From positions 5,640,001 through 5,672,000 of the forward strand of contig NZ_CP074694.1 of assembly GCF_018398935.1 (NCBI RefSeq): DNA of 32,000 nt. The letters are read 5' to 3'. Shown here piece after piece: positions 8,861-28,297 of this stretch. Every line of letters begins with the position of its first letter. The stretch's first letter is position 1. The notes below the pieces were generated by a model. That model saw only the letters and a program-made list of their open reading frames with translations. It did no database searches and was not told where the DNA came from. The position numbers were made by a program, and so were the translations under genes. This DNA comes from Telmatocola sphagniphila (GTDB taxonomy: Bacteria; Planctomycetota; Planctomycetia; Gemmatales; Gemmataceae).

Positions 8861-11800
8861 ATGAGGCGGGCCATGAAATTCAAATCTGTAGTTTCGTTCG
8901 GTGTTACGATGTTGTTTTGCTTGTTGCTAAATGCGACAGGTCAGGCAGCGAATTTCTCCGATTCCGAGGACAATTTTTTTGAAAAAGACATCCGTCCTCT
9001 TCTAGTTGAAAAATGCGTGGGCTGCCACGGCGACTCTAAATCCAAAGGTGGACTTACTCTGAACTCGAGGGCGGCCGTCCTTCGCGGTGGAGATTCAGGT
9101 TCGGCCATTGTTCCCGGCCAACCCGACAAGAGTCTACTGATTAAAGCCGTTCGGTATCAAGGCGACCTCCAGATGCCTCCGAAAGGTAAGCTAACCAACA
9201 AGCAGATTGAACTTCTCGAAAAATGGGTGAAACTGGGTGCCCGCTGGCCTGGCGTGGATTCGACACCCGTTCCGGGCAGCCATTTTACCATTACGGAAAA
9301 ACAACGGCAGTTCTGGTCTTTTCAGACGGTAAAGTTTCCACCATTACCCGCGTTCCGAGATTCAAGTTGGGCCAAGTCGGAAATTGACCGATTGATCCTG
9401 ACGGGACTGCGTGCGAAGAATCTTGCCCCGGCCGCGCCAGCCGACAAGCGCACTCTCCTTCGCCGGGCGACTTTCGACCTGATCGGCCTTCCTCCGAAGC
9501 CAGAGGAAATCGAAGCATTTCTGAAGGATGATTCGCCCGAGGCTTTCGCGAAAGTCGTGGATCGTCTGCTGGCTTCGCCCCACTACGGCGAACGCTGGGG
9601 CCGCCACTGGCTGGATGTCGTCCGCTATGCCGATGCGCGGGATTTGATTCAATTGCCGAAAGAGAGCGACTTCCGGGAAGCCTGGCGCTATCGGGACTGG
9701 GTAGTCGACTCGTTCAATCGAGATATGCCTTATACGGACTTCGTTCGTTCGCAAATCGCTGGCGACCTCCAGCCTTCGACTCGTCCCGATCGCTTCAACA
9801 AGGAAGGCCTGGTTGCAACCGGGATGTTGGCCATTGCGGATTTCGTTCCCGGCGATGTCGATAAGAATCAAATGATCGCGGACTACGTCAATGACCAGAT
9901 CGATGTGGTCGGCCGGGCATTTTTAGGGCTCTCGATCTCCTGCGCCCGCTGTCACGATCATAAATTCGATCCGATTTCTACCGAAGACTACTACGCGCTG
10001 GCCGGTATTTTTTTCAGCACTCGAATTATCCCTGGCCCCGTTCCCGGGAATACTCCACTCGTCAAAGTTCCATTACTTTCGCCGAATGAGATCGAACAGT
10101 TGAAATTGCGAGCCGCCGCGGACGAGACGCGCCGAAAAGAACTCGAACGGTCGCTTTCCGATGCGTCCACGAGCGAGTACCGCAACTACTTGCGAACGCT
10201 GCTCGACGAACAGTCGGCCCGATACATTCTGGCTGCACACGATTGTCGCACTCTGGACAAGCCGTCAGCCGTTGTTGTGGCGAATCGGCTTGGCCTTCAC
10301 AACGGATTGTTGGCGGAGTGGATCGCTTTTTTAGCTCGAGTTGAGAAACATCCTGAGGCAGGCTACCCGGCCCTGCTTCGCGAAATCGCTGCCGATAAAC
10401 TCTCGGACCCTGCATTGGTGCGCGCCGCCTTGGAAGTTCAAAATGCTCTTTCCGGATCCGTTCAGCGCGACCGGGATCAAGCTGGCCGCGCACCTGAAAA
10501 ATACGCTCTGGATCATTCCTTACTGTTTCAATTTCGCGCGGACGATCCCCGAATCGCATTCGACGAGGTCAAGCGAATCGCTTTCTGGCCGAACTTCTCC
10601 GGCTTTTGGCTAAACGCTTCTCCGCCGGTTCCAAAGAACTCCCCGGAGACTGCGTACGCTAAGATCGGTCAACATCAAAAACCAGTCATCCGATTCCAGG
10701 GTCAGTCGGTGTTGGCAGTCGAGCGTCCAGTTCCTCCGATGGGGTCTCTTTTCATCGTCTTCCGGCCATCGCCGGAATCTCGAGCCGGTGAGCGAATCGT
10801 TGGTTGGGAAGATGCCGACAGCGGCCAGCATGGGCTAGGTTTGATGACTGACTCGAAAGGTCGGCTCCACGCAATCCTCCGTAAGAATGGGCTATCGGGC
10901 GATTTAGTGGATAACCATGCGTGGAATGGCTTCGAAACTGTCTGCATTAGCTGGGGACCGGGCGGTACGACTATGCGCCGCAACGCAGTCGATGTTTCTT
11001 CGAAAACGATTGATGGAATTTCCTCGGATCCGAAAATCACGGCTTTGGCGATTGGCGGGCCCGGCTCCGGAAACGGCCCGCGCTTCACCGGGGATATTGC
11101 GGAATTGCGCGTTTACGACCGACCTCTCAGTGATTCGGAACGACTACTGGTCGATGACGAGCTCCATAAAACGTGGTTCGAAGCCGACGGCCCTAGAGTG
11201 CCTAAGCGGGATGCATTCGATGAGTTGGTCGTGGAAATGCTCTCCACGCGAGGGGCATTTTGGCCGCCCGTGGAAGAACGAATTAAACTTCTGCCTGCAG
11301 AAGTGCAAAAGCGGTTTGAAACGACGAGTCGCGAGTTAAATCTTCTGCGAAATAAACCTGCTGTGGAAGTTCCCATGGCAGTCGCCGTACAGGACGGCGG
11401 CCCTAAAGGGACGCGTCACGAAGGCTTTAAAGACGCTACCGTATTCCTTCGCGGCGATTCGAAACGACTTGGTAAAACGATACCTCGCGGCTTCCCGAAA
11501 GTACTAGCGGGAAACCAAACAGAAAAAATCATCGAAGGGAGTGGTCGACTCCAACTTGCCGACTGGCTGACCCACTCCACAAACCCGCTCACGTCCCGAG
11601 TGATGGTCAACCGTATTTGGCAGCACCACTTCGGTGAAGGTCTGGTCCGCACACCAAACGATTTCGGTGAACGGGGCGAACGGCCGACGAACCCCGAGTT
11701 GCTGGATTATCTCGCTACAAAGTTCATCGAATCGAAGTGGTCTGCGAAAACCATGCACCGGCTTATTATGCTTTCGGCGGTCTACCAGCAAAGCTGCACT

Positions 11801-12349
11801 AACAGCCCCGACGCGATGTCCCGCGATCCGGAAAACCGGTTGTTCGGACGTATGAACCGTCAGCGACTGGAAGCCGAAGCCATCCGCGACAGCCTGCTGG
11901 CGGTAAGCGGACGCCTGGATTCAACGCTGGGCGGAGCGCCCTTCTCCGATCTGGCCATTCCTCGCCGCACACTTTACTTGATGTCGTCCCGGACGGCAGC
12001 GAATACCTCCGATTTCGGACGACTTTTCGATGCTGCCGATCCTAGCATGATTGTGGCCCAGCGTGGCCAGTCGGTTGTCGCCCCGCAGGCGCTTTTTTTT
12101 CTGAACGATCCCTTCGTCCGAGGAGTTGCAAAAGATTTGGCGGCCAGGATCCGGAAAGAAACACCCGAAGACCCCGAGGCCCGCATCGAACATCTTTATT
12201 CCCTGACCTTGGGTCGCAAGCCCGCGAAAGTGGAGATTGAATTCGGGAAAAAACTGCTCCTTCCATCTACTCACCATGACAGTCCCGACCCGTTAGAGCG
12301 CTACTGCCTGCTGATTTTAAGTTCGAATGAATTCCTTTTCATGGATTGA
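8861..12349 (+). CDS. Planctomycete cytochrome-c domain / DUF1549 / LamG-like / DUF1553 protein
   Basis: The tracked ORF starts at a TTG (8753). The ATG at 8861 (or 8873) gives [29 protein letters not shown], a clean signal peptide. CxxCH heme motif CVGCH at 9014-9028, DUF1549 ([23 protein letters not shown]), [11 protein letters not shown], a LamG-type segment ([19 protein letters not shown]) and DUF1553 ([29 protein letters not shown]). Confidence 0.9.
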   Translation: [1162 protein letters not shown]

Positions 12350-12394
12350 TATGAGCTACTGGGGATTAAAACCGATTCAGAACCGAGAGGGGAT

Positions 12395-13795
12395 ATGAAC
12401 AAAAACTCTAATGTTGCGAGGCAGCCGAATCGCCGCGAGATGCTGCAACGCGTCGGTGCTGGGTTCGGTTCGCTCGCACTGTCGGCCTTACTGGCCGAGG
12501 AAGCGCATGGGGCGGATTCGGCCGACCCCCTCGCTGTTCGCAAGCCGCATTTCCAAGCGCGGGCTAAACGGGTGATCTTCCTCTTTATGCCGGGCGGTCC
12601 GTCGCAAGTAGACACCTTCGATCCCAAGCCGGAACTGACGAAATTCAACGGCAAATCATCGCCTAAACTTTACCTCGGTCAGAAGCGAAACCTGCTGGCG
12701 TCCCCGTGGAAATTCCGGAAACATGGCCAATCGGGCCTCGAAGTGAGCGAACTCTTTCCGTGCGTCGCGAAGCAGGTCGACCGACTTTGCATTCTGCGCG
12801 GAATGGTCGCCGACGATGTCAATCATCCCGGCGGATGCCTGCAGATGAACACCGGGGAGCGAGTCGCCACTCGTCCCAGTCTCGGTTCCTGGGTGACCTA
12901 TGGCCTCGGCACCGAAAATCAAAATTTGCCCGGTTTCATCGCCATCGGTCCCGGTCCGCTCATCGAGGGAAACCGCCAGTATGGTGCGGCTTTTCTTCCC
13001 GCGGCCCATCAGGGAACATTCGTATCGGATATGAAGAACCCGATCCGAAATCTGAAGAATAATCAAGTATCTCCAGAGCGTCAACGACTGGAGCTTGACG
13101 CCCTGCGCCGACTGAACGAATTTCATAGGATCGATCGTTCCGAAGACAGCCGTCTCGCAGCACGCATCGAATCCTTCGAACTCGCGTATCGGATGCAGAC
13201 CCAGGCGCCCGACGCTTTTGACCTCACGAAGGAAACCGACAAAGTGCAATCGCTTTATGGCGTCGACCGCAAGGAGACCGAGACGTTCGGTCGCCAGTGC
13301 CTGTTGGCGCGACGACTCGTTGAAAGGGGTGTGCGGTTCGTGCAGCTCTACCATACGAGTGGAGGATTTCAACCCTGGGACCAGCATAGCGACTTGAAAG
13401 GAGGTCACGAGAAAAACGCCCTGGCGACGGATCGGCCGATCGCCGGCCTGTTGGAAGATCTCCAAGCGCGTGGACTTTTAGAAGACACTCTCGTGATCTG
13501 GGGCGGTGAATTTGGCCGCACGCCGGCCGCCGAAGGGAAGGACGGAAGAGACCACCATCCCTATGGGTTCACCATGTGGCTGGCCGGAGGTGGTGTGCGC
13601 GGCGGCCTGGCACACGGAGAAACCGACGAATTTGGATGGGATGCAGTACAAGATCGCGTGCATATTCATGACCTTCACGCGACAATCTTGCATCTATTGG
13701 GACTCGATCACGAAAAGCTGACCTACCGCCACGCCGGACGAGACTATCGACTCACGGACGTCAGCGGCGTCGTCGCGAAAGCGATTCTAGCTTGA
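12395..13795 (+). CDS. DUF1501 family protein, Tat-signal bearing
   Basis: 466 aa, starting 45 nt after the PSD gene. Twin-arginine motif NRREMLQRVGAGFGSLALSA, then VIFLFMPGGPSQVDTFDPKP and WGGEFGRTP...GRDHHP. It is a paralog of the 4404-5735 product. Confidence 0.9.
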   Translation: MNKNSNVARQPNRREMLQRVGAGFGSLALSALLAEEAHGADSADPLAVRKPHFQARAKRVIFLFMPGGPSQVDTFDPKPELTKFNGKSSPKLYLGQKRNLLASPWKFRKHGQSGLEVSELFPCVAKQVDRLCILRGMVADDVNHPGGCLQMNTGERVATRPSLGSWVTYGLGTENQNLPGFIAIGPGPLIEGNRQYGAAFLPAAHQGTFVSDMKNPIRNLKNNQVSPERQRLELDALRRLNEFHRIDRSEDSRLAARIESFELAYRMQTQAPDAFDLTKETDKVQSLYGVDRKETETFGRQCLLARRLVERGVRFVQLYHTSGGFQPWDQHSDLKGGHEKNALATDRPIAGLLEDLQARGLLEDTLVIWGGEFGRTPAAEGKDGRDHHPYGFTMWLAGGGVRGGLAHGETDEFGWDAVQDRVHIHDLHATILHLLGLDHEKLTYRHAGRDYRLTDVSGVVAKAILA

Positions 13796-14373: not shown

Positions 14374-15825
14374 ATGATCCCTCTCGACGACGCCTATGTG
14401 GATGCTGCCGCCCCGAATGCCGAAGCGATCAAAAATGGTCGCAGTCTGGTTCTCAAAAACAAGTTTATCGCATTTCATATCTCTGAAGATCAATCGATCC
14501 TCTTCGGAGAGTGCCAGGGGAGCGGTAAAGAGCCTTACCGTTGCTCGTGCGATTTCATCCGCGAAGATAAACCGACCCATCGCTGTTCCTGTCCCAGCCG
14601 GCAGTTCCCCTGCAAGCACTGTCTAGGGCTGATGTACGCCTACGTGCAGAAGAAAAGCTTTAAAACCGCTGCCGTACCTGAAGATTTGCAGGCTAAACGA
14701 GAGAAATCCCAGGCTCGGGTAGAGAAGAAGCAAACCGAGGTGGAGAAACCGAAGCAGGTGAACCTGGGAGCACTTGCCAAGAAAATCAAAGCTCAGTTGG
14801 CGGGCATCGACATTCTGGAAAGATTAACGGCCGATCTTATCCGAGTAGGTATCGGCAACATGAATGCCAAGCTGGCTTCTTCCATGGAGGAGCAAGCCAA
14901 GCAGCTGGGCAATGCCTATCTGCCAGGAGCTCAGTCCGCCCTGCATGCCTACACTAAATTATTCGCAGGTGAAGAGGGCACCTTCACCGACCAGCCCAGC
15001 CAGGCCCGAGAAAAAATCTACAGTGAAGCCTTGGATCACCTTAGCCGACTGCACACTCTGGCCAAACAAGGCCGTGCGTACTTGCAGCGTCGATTAGAAG
15101 ATTCCGAACTGAAACCGGAAATCGATACCGCCATAGCTGCCTGGCTCGGCCATGCCTGGCAGCTCAGCGAATTAAAAGAGGCGGGACTGGTGGAGGTCGA
15201 TGCCGAGCTGGTTCAACTCGGCTTTAACACCCACGATGATGTCGCCCGAAAGGAATACATCGACACGGGTGTTTGGATGACGCTGAGTAATGGTCGGATT
15301 CGCATAACCCAAAATTTCCGACCCTATAAGGCTTTGAAGCATATCAAGAGCGACGATAGTTTCTTTCAAGTCGCGCAAGTACCACAACTCTACATATATC
15401 CGGGAAACGTCAATCCCCGCGTTCGCTGGGAAGGCATGGTTCCGAGGCCATTGACCCCCCAGGATCTCGAAGCGGTCCGAAAGCATGGGCACTCCGATTT
15501 CTCGGCCGTGATCAAGGAAGTGAAAGGCCATCTCAAGGGGCCATTAGCGGATAAACAACCGATTTATGCTTTGAATTTCAAGCATCTAGGCCGAGTGGGC
15601 GAAACCCTGGTCGTCGAGGACGTTACGGGAAATCGGCTCGTCTTGACCGATACGGGAATAAGCGAAGAACCGCCGAGTTGCCATCTCCTGTTGCTGCTAC
15701 CGGCCGACCTATTTCAAGGGAATACGCTTATTGCCCGCTTCCGTCATGATCTGGATACTCGTAAACTCCAGATCAAACCGCTCAGTCTGGTTAGTCGAAC
15801 ATCCATTATTCGCTTAACTCTCTGA
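14374..15825 (+). CDS. SWIM zinc-finger domain protein (YehQ-like), first gene of the five-gene operon
   Basis: 483 aa. SWIM signature CxCx6CxH = CSCPSRQFPCKH at 14584-14619, within YRCSCDFIREDKPTHRCSCPSRQFPCKHCLGLMYAY. A K/E-rich linker and a roughly 330-aa C-terminal domain of unknown function follow. Confidence 0.85.
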   Translation: MIPLDDAYVDAAAPNAEAIKNGRSLVLKNKFIAFHISEDQSILFGECQGSGKEPYRCSCDFIREDKPTHRCSCPSRQFPCKHCLGLMYAYVQKKSFKTAAVPEDLQAKREKSQARVEKKQTEVEKPKQVNLGALAKKIKAQLAGIDILERLTADLIRVGIGNMNAKLASSMEEQAKQLGNAYLPGAQSALHAYTKLFAGEEGTFTDQPSQAREKIYSEALDHLSRLHTLAKQGRAYLQRRLEDSELKPEIDTAIAAWLGHAWQLSELKEAGLVEVDAELVQLGFNTHDDVARKEYIDTGVWMTLSNGRIRITQNFRPYKALKHIKSDDSFFQVAQVPQLYIYPGNVNPRVRWEGMVPRPLTPQDLEAVRKHGHSDFSAVIKEVKGHLKGPLADKQPIYALNFKHLGRVGETLVVEDVTGNRLVLTDTGISEEPPSCHLLLLLPADLFQGNTLIARFRHDLDTRKLQIKPLSLVSRTSIIRLTL

Positions 15826-15868
15826 TTCCGTCTTTTGCTTCGCAAGAATTGTCCTGGGGTTTTCGCCA

Positions 15869-17659
15869 ATGAGCATCGCACTACTCACTCAGGTCTACGA
15901 CGAAACCCGCCGACTGGCGATTGCCGGCAGCGTGGTCGCGCCGGGGGATTTTCGACTCAAGAAGTTGATTACTCCGCTGGATCAAGCAGGTGCCAAAGCC
16001 CCTGTCTTCAGCAAGGTGGCCGAGGGGGTGAAAGCGGTTGTCGATTCGAATGATAAGACTTCCGCACAAGCTCTACTCGATCTCGCCACCCTCGTTAATG
16101 CCATTCTTTACACTCAGGGCGAAACTGGAATCGTCAGCCCTCTGGAACGGATCGAAACGACCGACCTGGGATTGCAAGTGACGCAAACCAGCGCGCGGGT
16201 GCTGAAACCCTTGATCGAAGCCTTGACCACAACCGGCTCCGGTCGATTAGAGATGATCAAGGAGGCATTCGCACAAAATGCGTTTCGCGATTTGCGACTG
16301 ATTCAACCTTCCGTCGTTGCCATCGATGATGTGTTTGCCGAACTAGCAGAGTTTGTCGCAGAAAAAATTCTTCCTCTTTATGGCAAAGCAATCCTCCCCT
16401 CGCTGAAAAGCACTTTTAACCTGAAGGGCAAAACGGGACATGGCCGACGTTTGAAATTGATGCATGCTCTCGATCCTGCCAATACACGGGAGCTCGTTAA
16501 ACAGGCTCTGGAGGAAGGTTCTAAAGAAGTTCGAGTCGCAGCCATCGAATGTCTGGGAGCCGAACCAGACGACATCGCTTATTTACTGGAACAAGCGAAC
16601 GCGAAAGCTTCAGAAGTTCGATTCGCTGCCTACTCAGCTTTGGCCGGAATAGATAATGATGCGGTACTGCCCTCATTACAAAAAGCAATTGAAGGTAAAG
16701 ATCTCTCGCAGGCGGTTTTGTCGCTGAAAAACTGCCTCAATGCCAAATTCCTGCACTACCTCTTGGGTCGAATCGAAGAATCGGTGACGGAGTTACGCAA
16801 GGAAAAAGACAAGAAAAAGATCAGCCAGAGTATTGATCGACTGCTCTATCTGCTCTATTGCCTGGAAGAGCGCCAGGATGCCCAGAGCGAAGAGTTACTA
16901 CTCAAGCTTTTCGCCGATAGAGACAAACTGCTAACTATTCGAGGCGAGACAACTTCCGGCCGGGACTTGAATAAGCGTGTTGTTTCCGTCCTCGCGCGAG
17001 GGACTCCCCATGCGCGGGAAACGCTCATCGAGAATCACGAATCATTGGACCTCGAGGATCTGAAAACCTGTTTCCAGGTCGCTCTGGAGGAATTGCCCCC
17101 CGAGAAAGTCTTCGAGATGTTTTCCCCCTACGCTTTGGGCAAAGGCGATCCCAAGAAGAAGAATCCGAAGCTGGAGAAAGTGTCGGGCGTCTTAGAAAAA
17201 CTAGCCATCCTGGATCAGCTATATTTTGGCACTAGGAAACTTCTAAACTCTGAGGCAAAAATTTCGCTCGATCCTCGTTGGCTGGATGTTGCCGTCCAGG
17301 CAAAGAAATCCAGTCTTGTCAGCCAACTAGCAAGACCTGGACATGCTGCAGCGAACGCGTTTCTGTTTGAAAGTTTTCAAAAAGCTTTAGAGAAATCGAC
17401 GTATTCTAGCGAATGTCCTCAAATTGTGGAAGGCATGGCCCGCGCTCAACATCCCGAGGCCACGGATGCCCTGATCACGATGCTCGAAAAACTTGGGGAC
17501 AAATTTAGCTATTACTACTTCTACCATTTGGAAGATATCGTCTCCCGACTCCCCACATCGGCAGTGCCCAAGCTCGAAGCCCTGGTTCCCAAATTACCCG
17601 AACGGCTGGCGGATAACTTACTGATGAGCCTGCAAAAGCTGCGTGAAAAAGCTGACTAG
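15869..17659 (+). CDS. HEAT/ARM-like repeat protein, function unknown
   Basis: 596 aa, all-helical-looking composition. HEAT-type repeats include SKEVRVAAIECLGAEPDD, SEVRFAAYSALAGIDNDAVLPSLQKAI and HPEATDALITMLEKLGD. It starts 43 nt after the SWIM gene and ends 44 nt before the ATPase gene. Confidence 0.7.
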   Translation: MSIALLTQVYDETRRLAIAGSVVAPGDFRLKKLITPLDQAGAKAPVFSKVAEGVKAVVDSNDKTSAQALLDLATLVNAILYTQGETGIVSPLERIETTDLGLQVTQTSARVLKPLIEALTTTGSGRLEMIKEAFAQNAFRDLRLIQPSVVAIDDVFAELAEFVAEKILPLYGKAILPSLKSTFNLKGKTGHGRRLKLMHALDPANTRELVKQALEEGSKEVRVAAIECLGAEPDDIAYLLEQANAKASEVRFAAYSALAGIDNDAVLPSLQKAIEGKDLSQAVLSLKNCLNAKFLHYLLGRIEESVTELRKEKDKKKISQSIDRLLYLLYCLEERQDAQSEELLLKLFADRDKLLTIRGETTSGRDLNKRVVSVLARGTPHARETLIENHESLDLEDLKTCFQVALEELPPEKVFEMFSPYALGKGDPKKKNPKLEKVSGVLEKLAILDQLYFGTRKLLNSEAKISLDPRWLDVAVQAKKSSLVSQLARPGHAAANAFLFESFQKALEKSTYSSECPQIVEGMARAQHPEATDALITMLEKLGDKFSYYYFYHLEDIVSRLPTSAVPKLEALVPKLPERLADNLLMSLQKLREKAD

Positions 17660-17703
17660 GAATTTACCTGGAATTGCATCGAACAACTCTTGAGGCGATC
17701 TAA

Positions 17704-18828
17704 ATGGCAAAGAAAAAGGCGGAAGAAGCGACCTCATCCAATTCTGGCTCGCAGATGCTGCGGGCTCCCGCAGAGATTCTCTACGCTACCGAGCTTGAAC
17801 AACTGGCCAAAGAGGATAAATTCGAACGTCCGCCCGGCTGGCGTTTGTCCGCTCGCGCCGTGCTGACCTATATCTGCGGCGGTAAATCGGGCTCGATGGA
17901 GATTACGCCCAAATACATCGGCAATAAACGCATTGTCGAAATCGCCATCTCCACACTAGTGACCGATCGATCGCTTTTACTTTTGGGCGAACCGGGAACT
18001 GCCAAATCCTGGCTTTCCGAACATCTCGCAGCTGCCATCAATGGCGATTCAACCAAGGTGGTGCAAGGCACCGCCGGTACGACCGAAGAACAGATTCGTT
18101 ATTCGTGGAACTATGCGATGCTGATCGCCAAGGGCCCCAGCCACGACGCCTTGATTAAAAGTCCCATCTTTCGTGCGATGGAATCAGGCACCATCGCCCG
18201 CTTTGAAGAAATCACCCGCTGTGCTGCCGAAGTTCAGGATGCTTTGATTTCCCTGCTTTCTGAAAAGCGCCTCTCATTGCCTGAATTGGCGACGGAAGTT
18301 CCTGCGAATAAAGGCTTCTCGATCATCGCCACGGCCAATACTCGCGATCGCGGCGTTAACGACATGTCTGCGGCCTTGAAACGACGCTTCAACATGATCG
18401 TGCTTCCCAGCCCCTCAAATCTGGAAACCGAGATTCAGATCGTCCGTAAGCGAGTTCAGGAACTCGCCGTCAGTCTAGAGCTGAAAGCGAACATCCCGAC
18501 CGAAGACGCCGTGGCTCAAGTGGTCACCATCTTCCGCGAACTTCGAACGGGTCAAACGCTCGACGGCAAGAATAAGCTGAAAGTGCCTTCGGGGGTACTA
18601 TCCACAGCCGAGGCCATCTCCGTTCTGGCTAACGGCATGGCTCTCGCGGGTAACTTCGGAAATGGAGAAGTCTCCGCTCACGATCTGGCGGCCGGTCTTC
18701 AAGGGGCCGTCGTAAAGGATGAGGAAAAAGATAAGGTCATCTGGCAGGAATATCTTTCGAATGTCGTGAAAAAACGTGGCTCCGAATGGTTGCCGCTGTT
18801 CACCTCTTGCTCGGAGCACAATTCGTGA
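17704..18828 (+). CDS. MoxR-type AAA+ ATPase (AAA_5-like, YehL-like)
   Basis: 374 aa with GAGG upstream of the ATG. Walker A LLLLGEPGTAKS (GEPGTAKS at 17986-18009). Walker B region IARFEE at 18193-18210, followed by ITRCAAEVQDALISLLSEKRL and FSIIATANTRD...ALKRRF. This is collinear with the MoxR core (DEINRA...vqsaLLeamqE...ViATqNP...DRF). Confidence 0.88.
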   Translation: MAKKKAEEATSSNSGSQMLRAPAEILYATELEQLAKEDKFERPPGWRLSARAVLTYICGGKSGSMEITPKYIGNKRIVEIAISTLVTDRSLLLLGEPGTAKSWLSEHLAAAINGDSTKVVQGTAGTTEEQIRYSWNYAMLIAKGPSHDALIKSPIFRAMESGTIARFEEITRCAAEVQDALISLLSEKRLSLPELATEVPANKGFSIIATANTRDRGVNDMSAALKRRFNMIVLPSPSNLETEIQIVRKRVQELAVSLELKANIPTEDAVAQVVTIFRELRTGQTLDGKNKLKVPSGVLSTAEAISVLANGMALAGNFGNGEVSAHDLAAGLQGAVVKDEEKDKVIWQEYLSNVVKKRGSEWLPLFTSCSEHNS

Positions 18829-21164
18829 GTTCCTGGCGTATCCCCGTCTTCGGCGTTCGCCATCTCTCCCCCTCCGGAGCGTGGCACCTGCGTCGATTTC
18901 TCGACAAAGTTCGGCCGAAGGTCGTACTTATTGAGGGATTGGACGATGCCGGGCCGCTCGTCAGCGACATCACTCTGCGCAATACCAAGCCTCCCATAGC
19001 CATTCTTGCGTACACCGATTCGCAGCCGGTGCGAACCCTGGTTTACCCGATGGCCCGTTACAGCCCGGAGTATCAGGCTCTGCAATGGGCTAAAGAGAAT
19101 AAAGCGACAGTCGAGTTCATCGATCTTCCCTCCGACATTTTTCTCGGCCTGCAAGACATCGAGTCGGAGCGTAATGAGCAGTTCCGCAAGAAAAGAGAGG
19201 AAGCAGAACCAGAGAGTACGGAGAAAGAGGAAGAAAATTCGCAGAGCCGCTGGCGACCCGAACGAGGGGAATCCATTTATCAACGCATCGCGGCCCGCTG
19301 TGGCGAACCCGATTACGATACCTACTGGGAACGCCGGTTCGAGCACAATCTCCAGGACGACAGCTACCGACTGGCGGCGTTTGAATTGGGTAAGGCCCTT
19401 CGCGACGAAGAAGATCCCCCGATCTGGCGAGCGGAAAATCTGGTTCGCGAAAGCTATATGCGACGGCGCATCGAGGAGGTGATTTCCAAAGGAGTGAAAG
19501 CCGAGCAGATTGTGGCCGTGGTCGGAGCGTTCCACGCATCGGTGCTCAACGGCGATTATCCGGCCATGACCGATGAAGAACTGTCCCGCTTGCGCCGACG
19601 CTCGAGCAAGCTCACACTGATGCCCTATTCGTATTACAAACTCTCCACGCAATCGGGCTATGGGGCCGGCAATCATGCCCCGGCCTATTTTGAGTTACTT
19701 TGGGACAGTCTCCAACGCCGGGAACTTCAGGAACTGCCTGGCGAATATCTCTCCCAAGTTGCCCGGCATCTGCGCGAACGGGGAACTCATCGATCGACGG
19801 CGGAAGTCATTGAAGGTGTGCGGCTGGCCAGAACGCTGGCGGCATTGCAAGAGGGTTCCGCAACAACGCTCCGAGATTTACGCGATGCGGCGGTGACCCT
19901 CATCGGTCATGGTGAAGCCCTTGTCGTGCGGGAGGCTTTGGCCGATATCGATATCGGCTCGGCCATCGGCGAATTACCCGAAGGCGTGAGCCAGACCTCG
20001 ATTCAGGAAGATTTCGCCCGGGAACTCTCCCGCTTGAAACTGGAGAAATATCGCACATCCACCGTTCAGGATCTCAAACTCGATTTGCGTGAAAATCGTC
20101 GAGTCCACAGCGAAGAAGCGGCCTTTCTCGACCTGAATCGCTCATCGTTTTTCCACCGACTTCTAATGCTCGGCATTCAATTCGCCACTCCGGTTTTGCT
20201 TCGACAGCAATCGACGACCTGGGCCGAGCATTGGCAGTTGAAGTGGACACCGGAATCCGAAATTGCGCTGGTAGAAGCCGTCTTACTCGGCGAGACCGTC
20301 GAACTGGCAACTGGCTTTCAATTCAAAACTCTCCTGGAAAACTGCAAAAACATCGGAGAAGCGAGTGATCTGGTGACGAAAGCCTGCCAGTGCGGGCTGA
20401 TGGCCTCCATGGAACTGGCTCGGCAACGCCTACAGGAACTTGCGGCCACCAGTACCGATATGAAGGTTATTGCCCACGCGACTTTCCAACTGAGCCAGGT
20501 GATTCGCTACGGGGATGTTCGCCGGTTCGATCCGGCCCCACTCCTTCCCCTGATGGAACAATTATTTGTCTCCGGTAGCCTCGCCTTACATTCGGCGGCC
20601 AATTGCAACGATGATGCCGCCAAGGAAATTGTTGTGGCCATCGAGGAGTTGAATCGAGTGAGCCTGGAACATCACGACCTTGTCGATGAGGCTCTCTGGC
20701 TGGAACAACTGCGGAGGCTATCCGATGCCGATGATCGCAACCCGCTTCTCTCGGGATTTGCCTGCGCGACTCTTCTGGAACGGAATCTGATTGAGAACGC
20801 AGAGTTGGTACGCGAGGTGTCGCGCAGGCTCTCCCCCGGTGTGCCCGCGGATCTCGGAGCCGGCTGGTTCGAAGGGCTCGCCAAGCGCAATCGGCATTCC
20901 TTGCTGGCCCGCCAATCACTTTGGGAAGCCCTGGATAGCTATATTGCTTCACTTGATCCGGATCAGTTCAAGCGAGCCCTGGTGTTCCTGCGTCGAGCGT
21001 TTGGCGCATTCAGTCCTCGTGAAAAACGGCAGATCTGTGAGAATCTCGCCCATTTCTGGGGTGTCGATGAAGAGAAAACCTTCGATGCCGTCGCCAAACC
21101 GCTGAGTGAAGAAGAAGAGAAGACCCTCAAGGACCTTAACGAACTCGATTTTGGGGATTTCTAA
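18825..21164 (+). CDS. DUF5682-like large protein (YehM-like) with an N-terminal TraB/PrgY/Tiki-like domain
   Basis: The frame is open from the ATG at 18786, but an in-frame GTG at 18825 overlaps the ATPase stop (GTGA). That start gives (M)SSWRIPVFGVRHLSPSGAWHLRRFL, the N-terminus I recall for this family. The rest is an about 530-aa helical region ending in the acidic tail SEEEEKTLKDLNELDFGDF. Confidence 0.75.
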   Translation: MSSWRIPVFGVRHLSPSGAWHLRRFLDKVRPKVVLIEGLDDAGPLVSDITLRNTKPPIAILAYTDSQPVRTLVYPMARYSPEYQALQWAKENKATVEFIDLPSDIFLGLQDIESERNEQFRKKREEAEPESTEKEEENSQSRWRPERGESIYQRIAARCGEPDYDTYWERRFEHNLQDDSYRLAAFELGKALRDEEDPPIWRAENLVRESYMRRRIEEVISKGVKAEQIVAVVGAFHASVLNGDYPAMTDEELSRLRRRSSKLTLMPYSYYKLSTQSGYGAGNHAPAYFELLWDSLQRRELQELPGEYLSQVARHLRERGTHRSTAEVIEGVRLARTLAALQEGSATTLRDLRDAAVTLIGHGEALVVREALADIDIGSAIGELPEGVSQTSIQEDFARELSRLKLEKYRTSTVQDLKLDLRENRRVHSEEAAFLDLNRSSFFHRLLMLGIQFATPVLLRQQSTTWAEHWQLKWTPESEIALVEAVLLGETVELATGFQFKTLLENCKNIGEASDLVTKACQCGLMASMELARQRLQELAATSTDMKVIAHATFQLSQVIRYGDVRRFDPAPLLPLMEQLFVSGSLALHSAANCNDDAAKEIVVAIEELNRVSLEHHDLVDEALWLEQLRRLSDADDRNPLLSGFACATLLERNLIENAELVREVSRRLSPGVPADLGAGWFEGLAKRNRHSLLARQSLWEALDSYIASLDPDQFKRALVFLRRAFGAFSPREKRQICENLAHFWGVDEEKTFDAVAKPLSEEEEKTLKDLNELDFGDF

Positions 21165-21169
21165 CCACC

Positions 21170-22399
21170 ATGTCTCTTGAAAATCTTCAGCGCTGGCGGC
21201 TCATACTCGGCAAGTCTTCCGAGGATTCCCTCCGTTCGAGCGCTGGACGAATGGGTCATTCAGGCGGCCTTCTGAGCGGCGATATGGCCGACATCGATGA
21301 TGCCCTCGACGTCGTTTATGCCGAAGACGACGGGATCGACCTCACCCGGGAAGAATGGGAGAACGACTCCGGTTCCAAGCGCGGGGCGGTCAAGGGAAGA
21401 ACCTATCCCAAGGTGGCGCGCTGGCTGGGGGAAGTGCGTCGGTTGTTCCCCACGGATATTGTGACTCTGGTACAGAAAGACGCGATCGAACGCAAGGGCC
21501 TGAAACAACTTCTGTTCGAGCCGGAAATGCTGGCCCAGGTCGAACCATCGGTCGACCTGGCTTCCATGGTACTCTCCCTCAAAAATCTGGTGCCGGAAAA
21601 GGCCAAAGCTGCCGCCCGCGATCTCGTCCGACGAGTGGTGGAAGATCTGCGAAAAAGGCTGGAATCGCGAATGCAGCAGGCCGTGCGCGGCGCGCTCAAC
21701 CGCAATCAGCACAGCCCCTTTCGCAGCCTGGCCAATCTGGACTGGCAGAGGGTGATTCGTCAGAATCTCAAAAACTATAATCCCGAGTTGCAAGCATTAA
21801 TCCCAGAGCATTTTTCGTTTTTCAGCCGTCAACAGAAGCGCAATGAATGGAATGTCATCATCGCCATGGATCAATCGGGCTCCATGGCTTCTTCGCTGAT
21901 CTACGGCGGCGTCATGGGAGCGATTCTGGCGAGTATGCTGGCTGTGGAAACGCATGTGGTCGCATTCAATCACGAGGATGTCGTCGACCTGACGGCCGAG
22001 ATGCACGATCCAGTGGACCTGCTTTTTGGCATACAACTGGGCGGGGCCGAGGATTACTGGAAAGCGACCTGCTACTGCGAACAGTTCATGCATACTCCGG
22101 CAAAAACGCTCTATATACTCTTGGCCGACCTGTATGATACCAGCCCGAATCAGCCGAAGTTTGAAAAAAGGATAGAACAGTTAATCGAAGGCGGGTTAAA
22201 GGCTGTCACGCTGCTGGCGATCAGCGATCAAGGGAAGCCCTCTTATAATCACGAGTTAGCCAAGAAATTGACGAACCTTGGCATGCCCTGCTTCGGCTGC
22301 TCTCCCGATCGGCTACCGGATTTGTTAGCCGCCGTGCTTAAAGGACAGGATTTGAACGTATTCGCCAGCCAGGCTGAATCGTCTCAGTCTCCGCGCTGA
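21170..22399 (+). CDS. VWA (von Willebrand factor A) domain protein with an intact MIDAS start motif (YehP/CoxE-like)
   Basis: 409 aa, starting 5 nt after the previous stop. N-terminal LQRWRLILGKSS. MIDAS DxSxS = DQSGS at 21869-21883, within NVIIAMDQSGSMASS. Later LYILLADLYDTS matches the distal VWA motif. Confidence 0.85.
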   Translation: MSLENLQRWRLILGKSSEDSLRSSAGRMGHSGGLLSGDMADIDDALDVVYAEDDGIDLTREEWENDSGSKRGAVKGRTYPKVARWLGEVRRLFPTDIVTLVQKDAIERKGLKQLLFEPEMLAQVEPSVDLASMVLSLKNLVPEKAKAAARDLVRRVVEDLRKRLESRMQQAVRGALNRNQHSPFRSLANLDWQRVIRQNLKNYNPELQALIPEHFSFFSRQQKRNEWNVIIAMDQSGSMASSLIYGGVMGAILASMLAVETHVVAFNHEDVVDLTAEMHDPVDLLFGIQLGGAEDYWKATCYCEQFMHTPAKTLYILLADLYDTSPNQPKFEKRIEQLIEGGLKAVTLLAISDQGKPSYNHELAKKLTNLGMPCFGCSPDRLPDLLAAVLKGQDLNVFASQAESSQSPR

Positions 22400-22590: not shown

Positions 22591-23166
22591 ATGGCCGTTT
22601 ATGGCCGCGCAAGACTTCACGACTTGAGAGGAACAGTCAATCGACTTCCAAGTTTGCGACCAACTGAATTGGATAAGGATTCGAAAGAGATACCTTTGGC
22701 TGCGACGGGAGCTGATGGAGGAGGAAAATCTCTGACCCCTGCGCTGACCCCTGAATCTGATTTTCGGAGATTAGTCTCAAAGTCGTTTGATGATGCTGAA
22801 GTCAATTCACTGCTAACGAGTGGTGAACGTAAACTCTTGCAGGTTATGGCTTTTGATGAAGCTAGAGGACGGGAGATAGCAGAAGAAAAGAATGCCCCCT
22901 CACGGGCTCGATCCGTGGACCCGCTGATTAAGAGTCAGGATTGGCAAATTGTAAACGTCGATCTGTCAAAGCTTTACGATATAAACAATTCAAACAGTAG
23001 CTATTCTGGTAGCAATGACCAAGCGAAGGCGTGCGGCACGGTGCGAAAAGATCTGATCGTCCTTTCGCCCGAACTCCGGCGAGTTATCGAAGCTTGGCCC
23101 AAACTGACGGAAGAGTTTCGCAATGCGATCCTCTTGATCGTTAAAGCAAACCTTCCGGCATCATAA
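22591..23166 (+). CDS. Hypothetical protein (ORFan-like)
   Basis: 191-aa ORF in an AT-richer stretch. The N-terminal half is low-complexity. The C-terminal LSPELRRVIEAWPKLTEEFRNAILLIVKA looks like a genuine helical motif. The start codon is uncertain. Confidence 0.4.
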   Translation: MAVYGRARLHDLRGTVNRLPSLRPTELDKDSKEIPLAATGADGGGKSLTPALTPESDFRRLVSKSFDDAEVNSLLTSGERKLLQVMAFDEARGREIAEEKNAPSRARSVDPLIKSQDWQIVNVDLSKLYDINNSNSSYSGSNDQAKACGTVRKDLIVLSPELRRVIEAWPKLTEEFRNAILLIVKANLPAS

Positions 23167-23448
23167 TCTAAAAAATGGCTATCGCGTTCGCCCATGGCTA
23201 CCTGGCGTACTTACGCCTGCGGTCGTAGGCTGCTGAAAAGAGGCAGCAAGTCGGAGGATGACCGGCTATTAGCTCTCTCCGCCAAATAGGAAAAGGCCTC
23301 GGCTCCTAGGGGGGTCTCTTCACACTTGAATATTCATGGCACCCGATGCCAACCGAATCGTATCCCTACCATCGATATTGAGTATCGTGAATCTCATCTT
23401 TAGCACTAGCAGATAGGGATGAACCTTCTCAGAGGTCTCCTTTAAGAG

Positions 23449-24099
23449 CTACGATACTAGGAATCCCCCGGGTGTTCCGCCTTCTGCAGCGTCGTCCGGT
23501 TTAGTGGCTACGCCGTCCATCCACACGGGTCGCTTGAATGTCCAATCGGGCAACTCGGTAGGTAAGGCGTATCCTTCAGTCGTCATCTGCTGGACTAACT
23601 CCTTCACCCGCTTTTCGGACTGACATATTACATGAATCACATCGTGGTGATCGGTCTGCAATATTTGGCGGGCGTGATCCGGAATGAAGAACAAGTCGTC
23701 GTCGACGCACCACCCGAAAGCCATGAAAGTGAACAGCGTGGCAATGAGCTTGTTCTCTTCATGCCGCTCGTACCGGACGGCACCAGCCCAGCCATCTGGA
23801 ATGCCTGCTCCGCGGAGTACAACATCTCGAACACCCTCATTGCAGGATCGCGAGGTGCTCGCCATTGGCCAGCCTCCCGAGCGGGGCCAGAGTAGGCCCG
23901 AACGCCATTCGTCCAAACCTTCTAAAAGGGAGGCTGCGAAGTTCGTCCAAGTTGCCGGATCAGAAGGGAACGTCCAGAAGCGAGAGTATTGTGTGGGTGG
24001 TAGAAAGCTCAAACAGCCTGAATCGGGGTATCGTGGATCGACACCAACGCCCTTTCTCGTTGTCCAAGTCCAGAACTCCGCCTCACTGATGGGTTGCAT
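23449..24099 (-). CDS. Hypothetical protein (Trp-rich, no recognisable motif)
   Basis: 216-aa ORF and the longest in this interval. Its overlapping plus-strand ORFs are Ser/Arg-rich, consistent with off-frame translation. I recognise no family. Confidence 0.4.
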   Translation of the reverse strand: MQPISEAEFWTWTTRKGVGVDPRYPDSGCLSFLPPTQYSRFWTFPSDPATWTNFAASLLEGLDEWRSGLLWPRSGGWPMASTSRSCNEGVRDVVLRGAGIPDGWAGAVRYERHEENKLIATLFTFMAFGWCVDDDLFFIPDHARQILQTDHHDVIHVICQSEKRVKELVQQMTTEGYALPTELPDWTFKRPVWMDGVATKPDDAAEGGTPGGFLVS

Positions 24100-24507
24100 C
24101 CGAGTTACCCAACCAAAACTACGAGAATACGATTCGGGGCGGAGTCGCGTTAGGGCTTCTCCAGAATTAACAAGTTACATCAAAGCCTGCGATCCCTATC
24201 TTTAACTATACGGTAACCTTCACTGCTCTGGATAGTTCGTCGATTCAGCAAAGCAGCGTATCAGGAGATCTTGGCCCTGTAGGCTCCCGATCAAAGTTCG
24301 GAGCTATCATAGATTCCGATTCGTCGAAGACATCCATCACGTTCGCCGATCCGTCTTTGACAAGGTGTCTCGATCCGTAGCCTGCAATGGTTCCTTCGTT
24401 CCATCGCGATGCCCAGATATGACTTAAAGGAGATTATTCGGTTGCAAAAAATCGGCGAATTCGGAGACGCTCAGGTTCAAAATAGTCAACACCACGAGGA
24501 GAATGTC

Positions 24508-26544
24508 ATGAACGTTTTGAGGTTCAGTATTGTGTGGATCCTGAGCTTGAGCTTCTTGCTCGGAGCGATCCACGCAGACGAGCCGACGAGACCGGAAGCC
24601 GACCCAGCGATAGTGCTGATTGATCGACTTGTGCAGGTGGATCAGCAAGATACTGGCTATTCCGGCAGTACATCTGGTACGGCGTTCCTTCCCCTTGGGC
24701 GGAACGAATCCCATACTATGCTGCTGGGTCAGCGGCCCCGGGTTCAATCCGACGCTATGCGATCGTTGGTGAAACTCGGCGTCAAAGCCATCCCATCGCT
24801 GCTCGACCACCTCTCCGACGACCGACGTACCAAGATTGTGATCGAACACGCCGGCTTTTTCGGCGGTTTCTTTCTCACCCAGGATCAGGGAGAAAAGGCC
24901 GAGGAGAAATTTGGTGAAGGGTTCAGTGCCGGCAAACGCTATTGTGTGCGTGTAGGGGATCTTTGTTACGTCGCACTCGGGCAGATCGTCAACCGTGGAT
25001 ATTTTGCCGTCCGCTATCAACCAACAGCCATCATTTACGCCACCTCCGTGCCGCATTGCAAGCAACTCCGTGCCGATCTGCTCAAGGAGTGGAAGGGACT
25101 ATCAGCCGAGACACACCGCAATTCGCTAGCCAAAGATCTGGAATCAGATTCCGAGTACGTCCGAGTCGGAGCTTCAGTTCGATTGGCGTATTATTACCCA
25201 GTGGAGTTCGAGACGCTCGCTATCAAACAGCTCGGACGCCCTACGTACGATGTGTTCGCGGTGGAGAAACTGGTCCGAGATGAACTCTACCCGGCCAAGT
25301 CGGCAAAGGATCGAAAAACGCTCGTGGATGAATTTGTCAAGAAGCACGGCGAGAGCGCTCTCGAAGGCATTCGCTGGAATCTGTTTGAGGATCTGGACTC
25401 CCTGGAGGCCGACGAAGAAGGGAGGAGAAGTCCAAAACTCGACCCCAAGTACAAAACCCGTGAGTGCCTGATGGATGTGTTTGGTCTACCCGCCAATGTC
25501 AAGAGTCAAGATCGGCCAAAGACCCAACCGCTCTCCTACACCACCCAAGCCCGGTTCGTCCAAACTTTGCTGTACGATCCTGGGGAAAAGCTCGATCAAG
25601 CCGTTCGCGACCTGCTGGCGAAGACCGAGGATGATTACATGGCCGAGGGTTGCCTTGACCGGCTGGTAGGTCGTGGATACGACGCTGCTATTGAAGAGTA
25701 CCTAAGACGCCGTCTACCGAAAGTGAAGGAGCGAAATCGAGAAGAACTCAAGAAGTACGAAGCAAAGCTCGGTTGGACCCGACTCCACGTCGCAGTAGAA
25801 CTGAACGTACCCGAATTCATTGAGACCGCGTTAATGGGCAAGATCGACGTGAACGCCCGCAGCAAGGATGGCCGGACGGCGTTGCATCTGGCCGCGGCAG
25901 CAGGTAATGGCGAAGCGGTCGAATTGCTTCTGAAATCGAAAGCCAACCCCAACTCGAAAGATGGTATCGGCCGGTTGGCGGTGCAACTGGCAAGCGCCGC
26001 CGATCATCCCGAAGTCGTCCGGAAACTGGTCGCGAGCAAAAGCGAGGTGCCAGACGTGCTGACCGCTGCGACTGTCGGAGATGCGACCCGCCTCGGCGAT
26101 CTGCTCAGAGGCAAGAGTCACCTGGTGAAGGAACGAAACGAATCGGGCTACACGCCGCTGCATATAGCGGCCCGCGAAGGTCACGACGAGTCAATCCGCG
26201 TACTGCTCCAGGCGGGGGCCGATGTTAATGTATTAGCCGTTGAGACGAACAATTATGAATCAGCGTATGGGTGGACTCCGCTCCATCTAGCCGTAATGAA
26301 CGGCAAAGCTAGTACTGTAAAACTGCTCCTTGAAAAGGGAGCCAACGTAAACGCCGCCGACAAGGGCGGAAAGCTGACCCCATTGCATTATGCTGCGTGG
26401 GCCGGAGACGCCGAACTGGTGAAGATATTACTAGCTGGTAAAGCCGATCGGGGAGCGAAAGACACTCGAGGCCGTATGCCACTCAACTTAGCGACGGAAC
26501 GGAAACACACGATGGTGGTCAAGTTGCTCAAGGAATCGAACTGA
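24508..26544 (+). CDS. Secreted protein with an N-terminal unknown/HEAT-like region and a C-terminal ankyrin-repeat array
   Basis: The tracked ORF starts at 24409. The ATG at 24508 is preceded by AGGAG and starts a signal peptide MNVLRFSIVWILSLSFLLGAIHA. The C-terminal ~270 aa hold several ANK repeats (DGRTALHLAAAAGNGEAVELLLKSKANPN, SGYTPLHIAAREGHDESIRVLLQAGADVN, GWTPLHLAVMNGKASTVKLLLEKGANVN, LTPLHYAAWAGDAELVKILLAGKAD). Confidence 0.85.
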   Translation: MNVLRFSIVWILSLSFLLGAIHADEPTRPEADPAIVLIDRLVQVDQQDTGYSGSTSGTAFLPLGRNESHTMLLGQRPRVQSDAMRSLVKLGVKAIPSLLDHLSDDRRTKIVIEHAGFFGGFFLTQDQGEKAEEKFGEGFSAGKRYCVRVGDLCYVALGQIVNRGYFAVRYQPTAIIYATSVPHCKQLRADLLKEWKGLSAETHRNSLAKDLESDSEYVRVGASVRLAYYYPVEFETLAIKQLGRPTYDVFAVEKLVRDELYPAKSAKDRKTLVDEFVKKHGESALEGIRWNLFEDLDSLEADEEGRRSPKLDPKYKTRECLMDVFGLPANVKSQDRPKTQPLSYTTQARFVQTLLYDPGEKLDQAVRDLLAKTEDDYMAEGCLDRLVGRGYDAAIEEYLRRRLPKVKERNREELKKYEAKLGWTRLHVAVELNVPEFIETALMGKIDVNARSKDGRTALHLAAAAGNGEAVELLLKSKANPNSKDGIGRLAVQLASAADHPEVVRKLVASKSEVPDVLTAATVGDATRLGDLLRGKSHLVKERNESGYTPLHIAAREGHDESIRVLLQAGADVNVLAVETNNYESAYGWTPLHLAVMNGKASTVKLLLEKGANVNAADKGGKLTPLHYAAWAGDAELVKILLAGKADRGAKDTRGRMPLNLATERKHTMVVKLLKESN

Positions 26545-27939: not shown

Positions 27940-27962
27940 CAACCACCGATCCTCGGCGGTTG
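27940..27962 (+). promoter_or_regulatory. Imperfect GC-rich hairpin followed by a T-rich tract, just upstream of the first small ORF of the RavA/ViaA cassette
   Basis: CAACCACCGA-tcc-TCGGCGGTTG forms a 10-bp stem with one mismatch. It is followed by TTTCGTTTC, then GGAG at 27973-27976 and the ATG at 27984. It could be a leader or attenuator, or the terminator of an upstream transcript. Confidence 0.25.
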
Positions 27963-27983
27963 TTTCGTTTCTGGAGACAACTC

Positions 27984-28265: not shown

Positions 28266-28297
28266 ATCTTACCCTCTCTTCCAAAAAGGACTTTCTC

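Follow-up and report, generated by a model that had tools for sequence, protein, structure and literature searches.

What does a bacterial gene cluster do that combines a SWIM zinc-finger protein (S), a HEAT-repeat protein resembling DUF5691 (H), a MoxR-family AAA+ ATPase (M), a DUF5682 protein (D), and a CoxE-type VWA protein (V)? We addressed this question for a cassette on the chromosome of Telmatocola sphagniphila (Gemmataceae, Planctomycetota; a 6.59-Mb contig), where five open reading frames (ORFs) on the + strand fill positions 14374-22399 of the 32,000-nt stretch of DNA that was analyzed, here called the window. A previous interpretation based on the letters of the DNA (the sequence-only reading) had proposed that the five genes form one uncharacterized machine. 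We conclude that they are one operon encoding one multi-component ATP-driven system. In our best reading, to which we give a probability of roughly 0.45, the products form a cytoplasmic ATP-driven remodeling and processing complex that acts on an unlinked endogenous substrate.

One operon conserved across phyla

The five genes are, in order:

14374..15825, + strand: S, a 483-residue SWIM zinc-finger protein (ORF, Pfam, alignment of 15 orthologues)
15869..17659, + strand: H, a 596-residue HEAT-repeat protein, divergent counterpart of DUF5691 proteins (ORF, Pfam)
17704..18828, + strand: M, a 374-residue MoxR-family AAA+ ATPase of YehL type (ORF, Pfam, BLASTP)
18825..21164, + strand: D, a 779-residue DUF5682 protein with a GTG start (ORF, Pfam, NCBI match)
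21170..22399, + strand: V, a 409-residue CoxE-type VWA protein with a conserved N-terminal RWRLILG region (ORF, Pfam)

Their packing is exactly as the sequence-only reading had it: five same-strand genes with junctions of 43, 44, -4, and 5 nt, preceded by a spacer of 578 nt upstream of the S gene. At the -4-nt junction, the GTG start of the D gene overlaps the stop of the M gene by 4 nt; the longest ORF for D begins with an ATG at 18786, and the NCBI protein KIH39_22615 (779 residues) is 100% identical to the GTG-start version. Scanning for operon-internal promoters and terminators gave fewer sites than in shuffled sequence and none above the shuffled expectation. A hidden Markov model search with Pfam recovered all five of the domain assignments made in the sequence-only reading, namely SWIM (PF04434, residues 55-90, 20.9 bits with a cut-off of 19.6) in S, HEAT_2 (residues 208-276, 38.6 bits) together with a sub-threshold DUF5691 match (21.9 bits, cut-off 27) in H, AAA_5 (135 bits) in M, DUF5682 (PF18934, 489 bits) in D, and VWA_CoxE (PF05762, residues 167-383, 115.5 bits) in V. 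There was no family-level match in an NCBIfam scan of all five proteins and no match in an Rfam scan of the window. By hydropathy, the five proteins are soluble, each being devoid of transmembrane-like segments.

A scan with a DUF5682 alignment over one genome per GTDB species returned at least 589 encoding stretches, of which the best 80 were kept; these loci come from Gemmataceae, Isosphaeraceae, Pirellulaceae, Planctomycetaceae, Paenibacillus/Cohnella, many Clostridia, and Leptotrichia. All ORFs of the 80 loci were searched with the five window proteins, and 58 loci had enough DNA on both sides. All five genes were present in 53 of these 58 loci and were co-linear, in the order S-H-M-D-V on the same strand, in 52 of 58, covering Planctomycetota, Bacillota, and Fusobacteriota. 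Because the same order and strand recur over several phyla, the grouping is more than chance; the co-conservation on which the proposal of a single system depended is thus found. Departures from the common arrangement include one locus with S and H inverted, extra tandem H paralogues (two or three, before the ATPase gene) in three loci of Lachnospiraceae/Oscillospiraceae (L041, L046, L071), and unrelated genes between D and V in L043, L044, L071, and L080. In the inserts that were scanned (L044, L071, L080), these genes include RtcB, GNAT, HSDR_N, AAA-ATPase_like/PD-(D/E)XK, and GyrI-like ones. Identity to the orthologues descends from M (67-78%) through D (44-68%), V (43-68%), and S (32-64%) to H (15-45%), the most variable subunit.

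Related clusters in other phyla, of which the sequence-only reading had named actinobacterial ones, do exist: genes annotated as SWIM, DUF5691, AAA, DUF5682, and VWA follow one another in this order in Rhizobium etli, Deinococcus taeanensis, and Methylosinus trichosporium, and further matches were found in Streptomyces, Nocardia, and Nonomuraea. In a search of 1.84 billion representatives (E <= 0.001), relatives of DUF5682 fell into 3,127 clusters at 50% identity, nearly all with a length of 730-800 residues. The window copy is one more member of a widespread cluster that is already annotated by domain in RefSeq. The tight junctions, the order kept in most adequately flanked loci, and the same order in independently annotated clusters together make the five genes one unit, and the idea of one transcription unit for a multi-component ATP-driven system is borne out by packing and cross-phylum co-conservation alike.

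Two kinds of gene fusion bear on how the components may be wired. On a plasmid of Hymenobacter sp. HDW8 (L084:4183-7212), a 1,009-residue protein joins SWIM to DUF5691; its first ~490 residues match SWIM proteins, including CSCPSRVFPCKH, and its residues 623-740 match DUF5691. This fusion argues for a putative S-H sub-module beside the ATPase. Likewise, P0387 and P0386, cluster representatives of 1,049 and 1,097 residues, are DUF5682 proteins with a complete V at the C terminus (residues 738-1044 of P0387 align to residues 83-390 of V with 33% identity, E 7e-60; the P0386 alignment is weaker), which argues for a putative D-V sub-module, also beside the ATPase. The metal ion-dependent adhesion site (MIDAS) of P0386 looks degenerate (DNSIGS). 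From these fusions we infer a division of labor between S-H and D-V. The view that the five genes are mere neighbors with unrelated functions is effectively refuted by the order and strand conserved across phyla and by the two independent kinds of fusion, and the M and D frames moreover overlap; we regard it as hardly credible.

Judged from alignments, the SWIM, ATPase, and MIDAS motifs of the window proteins are intact; they are listed here together with one altered site of V:

14584..14619, + strand: zinc-ligand motif of S, C71-S-C73-PSRQFP-C80-K-H82, with the four ligands invariant in 15 orthologues
17986..18009, + strand: Walker A of M, G95-EPGTAK-S102, invariant in 15 sequences including Escherichia coli YehL
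21869..21883, + strand: MIDAS of V, D234-Q-S236-G-S238, invariant in 16 sequences
22040-22057, + strand: MIDAS Thr-to-Glu site of V, GGAEDY, residues 291-296 (alignment of 16 sequences)

The Walker A (GEPGTAKS) and MIDAS (DQSGS) strings picked out in the sequence-only reading are therefore both present and invariant. M also has a Walker B motif (F-E168-E169), a sensor-1 residue (N212), and R227-R228, all invariant in the same alignment, and is 41% identical to E. coli YehL over 356 residues (E 2e-83). It is the only one of the five to match PDB chains by sequence, with midasin AAA modules as its nearest solved sequences (E 3e-13) and 2r44 also matched; S, H, D, and V gave no match. In V, D320 and the N-terminal RWRLILG region are likewise invariant. 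This protein is 32% identical to YehP over 394 residues (E 3e-64), is uniform in length (386-436 residues across orthologues), and ends ~25 residues past its VWA_CoxE match. The usual MIDAS Thr (GGGT) is replaced by Glu (GGAEDY) in the four aligned Planctomycetota VWA proteins only, where SDLYEGG also becomes ADLYDTS; GGGT is retained in the Bacillota, Fusobacteriota, and E. coli versions.

S consists of the SWIM finger, a Lys/Glu-rich linker, and a conserved C-terminal domain; it is basic (isoelectric point, pI, 8.8), with a Lys-rich linker. The string C-[ST]-C-PSR-x-FP-C-K-H is also found in Rhizobium, Deinococcus, Methylosinus, and Hymenobacter, and S shows homology to the proteins that are annotated as "SWIM zinc finger family protein" in the first three of these clusters (E 7e-17 to 2e-23). 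The relationship of H to DUF5691 is more distant. Among 20 H orthologues and paralogues, HEAT_2 was detected in 14 and DUF5691 in 2 at E <= 0.01 (best E 7e-6), and an hhalign comparison of the H family with four DUF5691 proteins gave E 0.003 over 127 columns at 10% probability; the position in the operon is equivalent. Since S-H is the fastest-evolving and sometimes duplicated part of the cassette, we read it as a putative target-recognition module.

A predicted Tiki/TraB/ChaN-like domain in the DUF5682 protein

Two parts of D deserve separate description:

18837..19709, + strand: N-terminal domain of D, residues ~5-295, with a predicted Tiki/TraB/ChaN-superfamily fold and a putative hydrolase site
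21129..21161, + strand: acidic-aromatic C-terminal tail of D (…L-N-E-L-D-F-G-D-F), residues 769-779, with a predicted local distance difference test score (pLDDT) <50

An AlphaFold2 model of D (pLDDT 80; predicted TM-score, pTM, 0.71) comprises an alpha/beta N-terminal domain, a mixed middle, and a C-terminal alpha-solenoid; the full-length model gave weak alpha-solenoid matches only when compared with the PDB by Foldseek (E >= 0.017). In the N-terminal domain, G10-x-R12-H13, E37, D41, Y79-x-x-E82-Y-Q84, R208-E209, and G234-x-x-H237 are invariant in 36 sequences ranging from E. coli to Planctomycetota. Two GxxH motifs together with conserved Glu and Arg are what we take to be the signature of the Tiki/TraB/PrgY/ChaN/erythromycin-esterase superfamily. 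Consistently, when the 36 N-terminal domains were scanned singly with Pfam, Cofac_haem_bdg (the ChaN family of the Tiki superfamily) was matched in 10 of them, in the same region and register (best E 8e-5), and TraB_PrgY_gumN in 7 (best E 1.6e-4), both below the cut-off. These were the sole recurrent secondary families in the scan; in a control with the C-terminal 480 residues of 38 members, no family was matched in more than 3. Comparing and merging the profile with that of the E. coli TraB-family protein YbaP placed the YxxEYQ, R, and second GxxH motifs co-linearly.

The N-terminal domain was also modeled separately (pLDDT 78.5, pTM 0.80). Foldseek with this model against BFVD gave a single match at E <= 0.001, a marseillevirus "TraB family protein" (E 3.1e-4, probability 1.00). 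Against the PDB, a profile search with the domain gave no match and Foldseek no significant one; in the latter, the erythromycin-esterase-like 3b55 ranked 10th and HopBA1 13th. Overall, we consider a Tiki/TraB/ChaN-type fold probable for this domain, and the conserved residues suggest that it may be a hydrolase, of peptidase or esterase type, with a His/Glu/Arg site.

The C-terminal tail, although disordered in the model, is conserved in sequence. It has the pattern [DE]-F-D-F-x-[DE]-[ILF], with L771, F774, D775, and F776 conserved at >=90% in the clade of Planctomycetota, Bacillota, and Fusobacteriota; it is absent from the proteins of Rhizobium, Deinococcus, Hymenobacter, Methylosinus, and E. 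coli. It may be a candidate docking peptide, serving as a ligand for the MIDAS or for the AAA+ ring.

A Tiki-like domain could hold a ligand rather than cleave a substrate, and an alternative that we consider unlikely makes the cassette a dedicated chaperone for cofactor or metal insertion (maturation). DUF5682 would then be the large ligand-binding subunit, with haem, a tetrapyrrole, or a metal in its ChaN-like domain, by analogy with CoxD/CoxE, NorQ/NorD, CbbQ/CbbO, and the chelatases BchI/D/H and CobS/T/N. Indeed, the combination of an AAA+ protein, a VWA protein, and a large third subunit mirrors the chelatases. V is of the CoxE type, and characterized MoxR-VWA pairs are mostly maturation factors (PMC3893208, PMC7159879). 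The best sub-threshold Pfam match of the domain is to the haem-binding ChaN family, and the place of the cluster in the E. coli core genome accords with a cellular role. However, no gene for a target enzyme or a cofactor pathway is conserved beside the cassette in the 80 loci, whereas the cox, nor, cbb, and bch/cob operons carry such genes. The paired GxxH with Glu/Arg is moreover the signature of the catalytic members TraB, Tiki, and EreA, the structural match is to a TraB protein, and the SWIM and HEAT subunits are left unexplained by this alternative.

Genomic context and a proposed mechanism

The genes that flank the cassette differ between the 80 loci, and those seen repeatedly are of ordinary kinds, namely histidine kinases, ABC transporters, aldo-keto reductases, regulators, and ClpA/Aat. 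In a search of PADLOC-DB v2, S, H, D, and V gave no match and M only one to IetA over 29 residues (E 0.0014); among 119 immediately flanking proteins from ~35 loci, PADLOC gave isolated defense-model matches only, including JetD and TerY. A defense-island signal, for which the sequence-only reading had proposed a test, is not seen in the operon and its immediate flanks. Among 50,697 phage records, DUF5682 was found in 1, an unannotated faecal contig; of 72,556 plasmid records, 43 carry it, and most of these are large, non-mobilizable replicons. Of 5,426 complete E. coli genomes, 5,353 (98.7%) have a single, chromosomal copy of yehLMPQ, the E. coli counterpart. Transposase and integrase domains are lacking next to the window operon, as are tRNAs and flanking repeats, and the operon shows no anomaly in GC (guanine plus cytosine) content. 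The ordinary and variable flanks, the lack of PADLOC matches, the near-absence from phages, the near-universal single copy in E. coli, and the lack of a GC anomaly, tRNA, or repeats lead us to prefer a cellular over a mobile or defensive setting; we infer a role in cellular maturation or quality control rather than in immunity.

In our best reading, the products of the five genes would make up one self-contained machine in the cytoplasm, belonging to the YehL branch of the MoxR AAA+ systems, with two sub-modules arranged around the ATPase. S-H would bind a substrate, either a protein or a nucleoprotein, whose gene lies elsewhere in the genome. A MoxR hexamer would use ATP to pull on an acidic peptide via the MIDAS of the VWA subunit, and the pulling would remodel either the bound substrate or the DUF5682 subunit, after which the Tiki-like site of DUF5682 would process the substrate.

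Several observations weigh against this reading. Four Pirellulales loci (L009, L010, L020, and L021, from Pirellulaceae, Rhodopirellula, and Aporhodopirellula) have M-D(-V) without S or H within 10 kb, and among the neighbors in the 80 loci there is no linked substrate gene. All Tiki-clan Pfam scores are sub-threshold (the best Cofac_haem_bdg score is 23.2 bits, with a cut-off of 27.7), and hhalign of the N-terminal domain with the YbaP/TraB profile, which is shallow (>= 59% identity), yielded short, motif-level alignments of low probability. The TM-score of the BFVD match is modest (0.33/0.43), and ChaN is not itself an enzyme but binds haem. In E. coli, yehL and yehM are silenced by H-NS. 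A literature search with DUF5682, DUF5691, PF18934, and the yeh gene names found no functional study or experiment, in agreement with the earlier supposition that this gene set had no published functional characterization. Finally, because D is 45-55% identical between the Planctomycetota and Bacillota versions, the cassette, whose distribution is patchy, appears to have been transferred horizontally between phyla as a unit, which is common for accessory and conflict systems. Within lineages, it behaves as a stable chromosomal function.

A rival explanation is a nucleoside triphosphate-dependent conflict (anti-phage or anti-invader) system, in which MoxR-VWA would be a threshold switch, SWIM-HEAT the sensor of the invader, and the Tiki-like domain an effector protease or hydrolase. 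Four conflict systems have been described that have a MoxR-vWA pair at their core (PMC7159879), and the patchy phyletic pattern with clear cross-phylum transfer, the silencing by H-NS, and the fast evolution and tandem duplication of H would all fit. So would the Methylosinus copy, which lies on a plasmid amid insertion sequence elements and toxin-antitoxin genes, the occasional flank matches to JetD and TerY, and the bpMoxR-type MoxR/VWA module and ORFans just downstream in the window. Yet the cassette fits none of the four ternary systems, its VWA protein being without a variable effector domain; the five proteins lack PADLOC matches, and no defense neighbor recurs in the 80 loci. In E. coli the system is a single-copy part of the core genome, phages are essentially devoid of the family, and an ATPase 67-78% identical across phyla is unusual for a component of an arms race. 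We therefore doubt this explanation and keep to a complex that processes an endogenous substrate.

As to the surroundings of the operon, the sequence-only reading had described a neighboring stretch of ORFans and mobile remnants. The ORFans stand, accompanied by an ankyrin-repeat protein, and the mobile remnants do not, given the lack of transposase or integrase domains, tRNA, repeats, and GC anomaly. Within 22591-28492, three ORFans without a Pfam match are found at 22591-23166 (+ strand), 23449-24099 (- strand), and 27800-28492 (+ strand), and the 711-residue ankyrin-repeat protein is encoded at 24409-26544. A second, unrelated MoxR/VWA module begins 6 kb downstream of the operon (28567-32000, + strand):

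28567-29697, + strand: bpMoxR-type ATPase (PF20030, 174 bits)
29714-31084, + strand: 456-residue protein with a weak VWA_2 match (Pfam)
31191 to beyond the window end, + strand: DUF6744 protein (Pfam)

To judge from the name of the Pfam family of its ATPase, this module would belong among the conflict systems that Kaur et al. describe as "MoxR-vWA-beta-propeller"; what lies within the window showed no beta-propeller. A PSCyt/PSD (DUF1549/DUF1553) gene and a DUF1501 gene occupy 8753-13795, directly upstream of the cassette. The same PSCyt/DUF1501 arrangement was found in Aquisphaera insulae (L012:1776-5363; DUF1501 44% identity) and in no other locus. These families are highly paralogous in planctomycetes. 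A functional link of this pair to the cassette was rejected, its occurrence in Aquisphaera only being probably due to local synteny or chance.

Comparison with known systems

The pairing of a MoxR AAA+ protein with a MIDAS VWA protein is shared with CoxD/CoxE, RavA/ViaA, NorQ/NorD, and CbbQ/CbbO, and V falls in the CoxE Pfam family; the likeness is limited to the M-V pair. Those pairs adjoin their client enzyme, whereas the cassette has three extra conserved subunits and no linked client in the 80 loci.

The sequence-only reading had also linked the cassette to the vWA-MoxR ternary conflict systems, four of which are defined by VMAP, inactive STAND (iSTAND), FtsH, or beta-propeller partners together with variable vWA effector domains (Kaur et al., 2020, PMC7159879). 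Both have a MoxR and vWA core with conserved partners, and the iSTAND type shares with V a CoxE-like N-terminal helical domain of the vWA protein (PMC7159879). This link did not hold: by Pfam, the five proteins contain no VMAP, iSTAND, FtsH, or beta-propeller, and V carries no variable effector. The bpMoxR model scores 28.8 bits over 51 residues on M, compared with 174 bits on the other MoxR protein of the window, and PMC7159879 mentions none of SWIM, YehL, TraB, and DUF5682. We conclude that the cassette falls outside the four published vWA-MoxR conflict systems.

With the Tiki/TraB/PrgY/GumN/ChaN/erythromycin-esterase superfamily, D shares the paired GxxH, Glu, Arg, and YxxEYQ in the same order as in YbaP. 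It differs by a charged insertion of ~100 residues within its N-terminal domain and by the helical region of ~480 residues to which this domain is fused. To our knowledge, no member of the superfamily works with a MoxR-VWA pair.

The clusters of Rhizobium, Deinococcus, Methylosinus, and Hymenobacter share with the window copy all five components, their order, and the SWIM motif; compared with the Rhizobium proteins, identity is 56% for M, 37% for V, and 28% for D. Their second gene, however, encodes a bona fide DUF5691 protein, unlike the HEAT_2-scoring and weakly DUF5691-matching H, and the window copy belongs to a separate clade with those of Bacillota and Fusobacteriota.

The sequence-only reading had equated the SWIM, AAA_5, DUF5682, and VWA genes with yehL-yehM-yehP-yehQ of E. 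coli. For the first three this is correct: YehL (41%), YehM (24%, E 5e-29), and YehP (32%) are full-length homologues of M, D, and V, and YehM retains the putative active-site residues of DUF5682. For the fourth the match is limited to a motif. The E. coli cluster does include a SWIM protein, YehQ (614 residues), but this shares the zinc-finger motif alone with S, neither BLASTP nor hhalign being significant. The order also differs (M-D-V-SWIM), there is no HEAT/DUF5691 gene, and YehM is without the acidic DFDF tail. YehQ and YehI were tried as counterparts of the HEAT family by hhalign and rejected as not significant. In E. coli K-12 (L001, 2196474-2204289), yehF (WGR), yehH (a pseudogene), yehI (DUF4132), and yehK precede yehLMPQ; neither the window nor the 80 loci have the upstream DUF4132 genes (yehH, yehI) or the WGR gene. 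In Deinococcus radiodurans, genes for WGR and DUF4132 proteins are reported to belong to the DdrO regulon (radiation/desiccation response); MolR is described as part of the LexA regulon (PMC8533742). By analogy, a link to DNA damage is possible for the E. coli version of the cluster only.

This neighborhood bears on one more rival, a nucleic acid-directed remodeler, in effect a "split midasin", that would act on ribonucleoprotein, DNA-bound, or damage-related complexes with the SWIM finger as its nucleic-acid reader. Such a role is suggested by the midasin AAA modules nearest to M, midasin likewise using a MIDAS domain (the Rea1 analogy, PMC7159879), by the basic S protein (pI 8.8) with its Lys-rich linker, and by the WGR and DUF4132 genes that the E. 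coli cluster follows, such proteins being members of the DNA-damage regulon in Deinococcus (PMC8533742). The five proteins, however, contain no nuclease, helicase, or RNA-binding domain by Pfam, and the WGR and DUF4132 genes are missing from all the loci considered here. SWIM domains also bind proteins. We regard the nucleic-acid role as quite improbable and retain the processing complex as our preferred reading.

With midasin/Rea1 itself, the cassette shares AAA_5-type modules, the best PDB sequence matches of M, that act with a MIDAS domain. Midasin is a eukaryotic single polypeptide of 4,700-4,900 residues with six AAA modules, whereas here the ATPase and the MIDAS are on separate small proteins. 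Tentatively, and with more doubt than attaches to the processing complex as such, these cassettes could be seen as an unrecognized class of AAA+-driven processing systems. Such a system would be the bacterial version of a "split midasin": its MoxR ring, together with a MIDAS adaptor, would pass a substrate chosen by SWIM-HEAT on to a Tiki/TraB-type hydrolase. If this is true, D would be the first Tiki-superfamily enzyme coupled to an ATPase motor. What is new here is the prediction of a Tiki-like domain for D, the wiring in two sub-modules suggested by fusions, and a context that looks cellular rather than defensive. Two lineage features, the MIDAS Thr-to-Glu change of the planctomycete members only and the acidic DFDF tail of DUF5682, may guide interaction studies.

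The YehL subfamily is one of seven recognized MoxR subfamilies, and YehL and RavA are the only MoxR proteins of E. coli K-12 (PMC3893208). The predicted, mutable active site of DUF5682 (H13, E37, R208/E209, and H237) and the wiring suggested by the fusions make the system testable in E. coli, where the "split midasin" class, if true, would give a first function to a machine present in nearly every strain.

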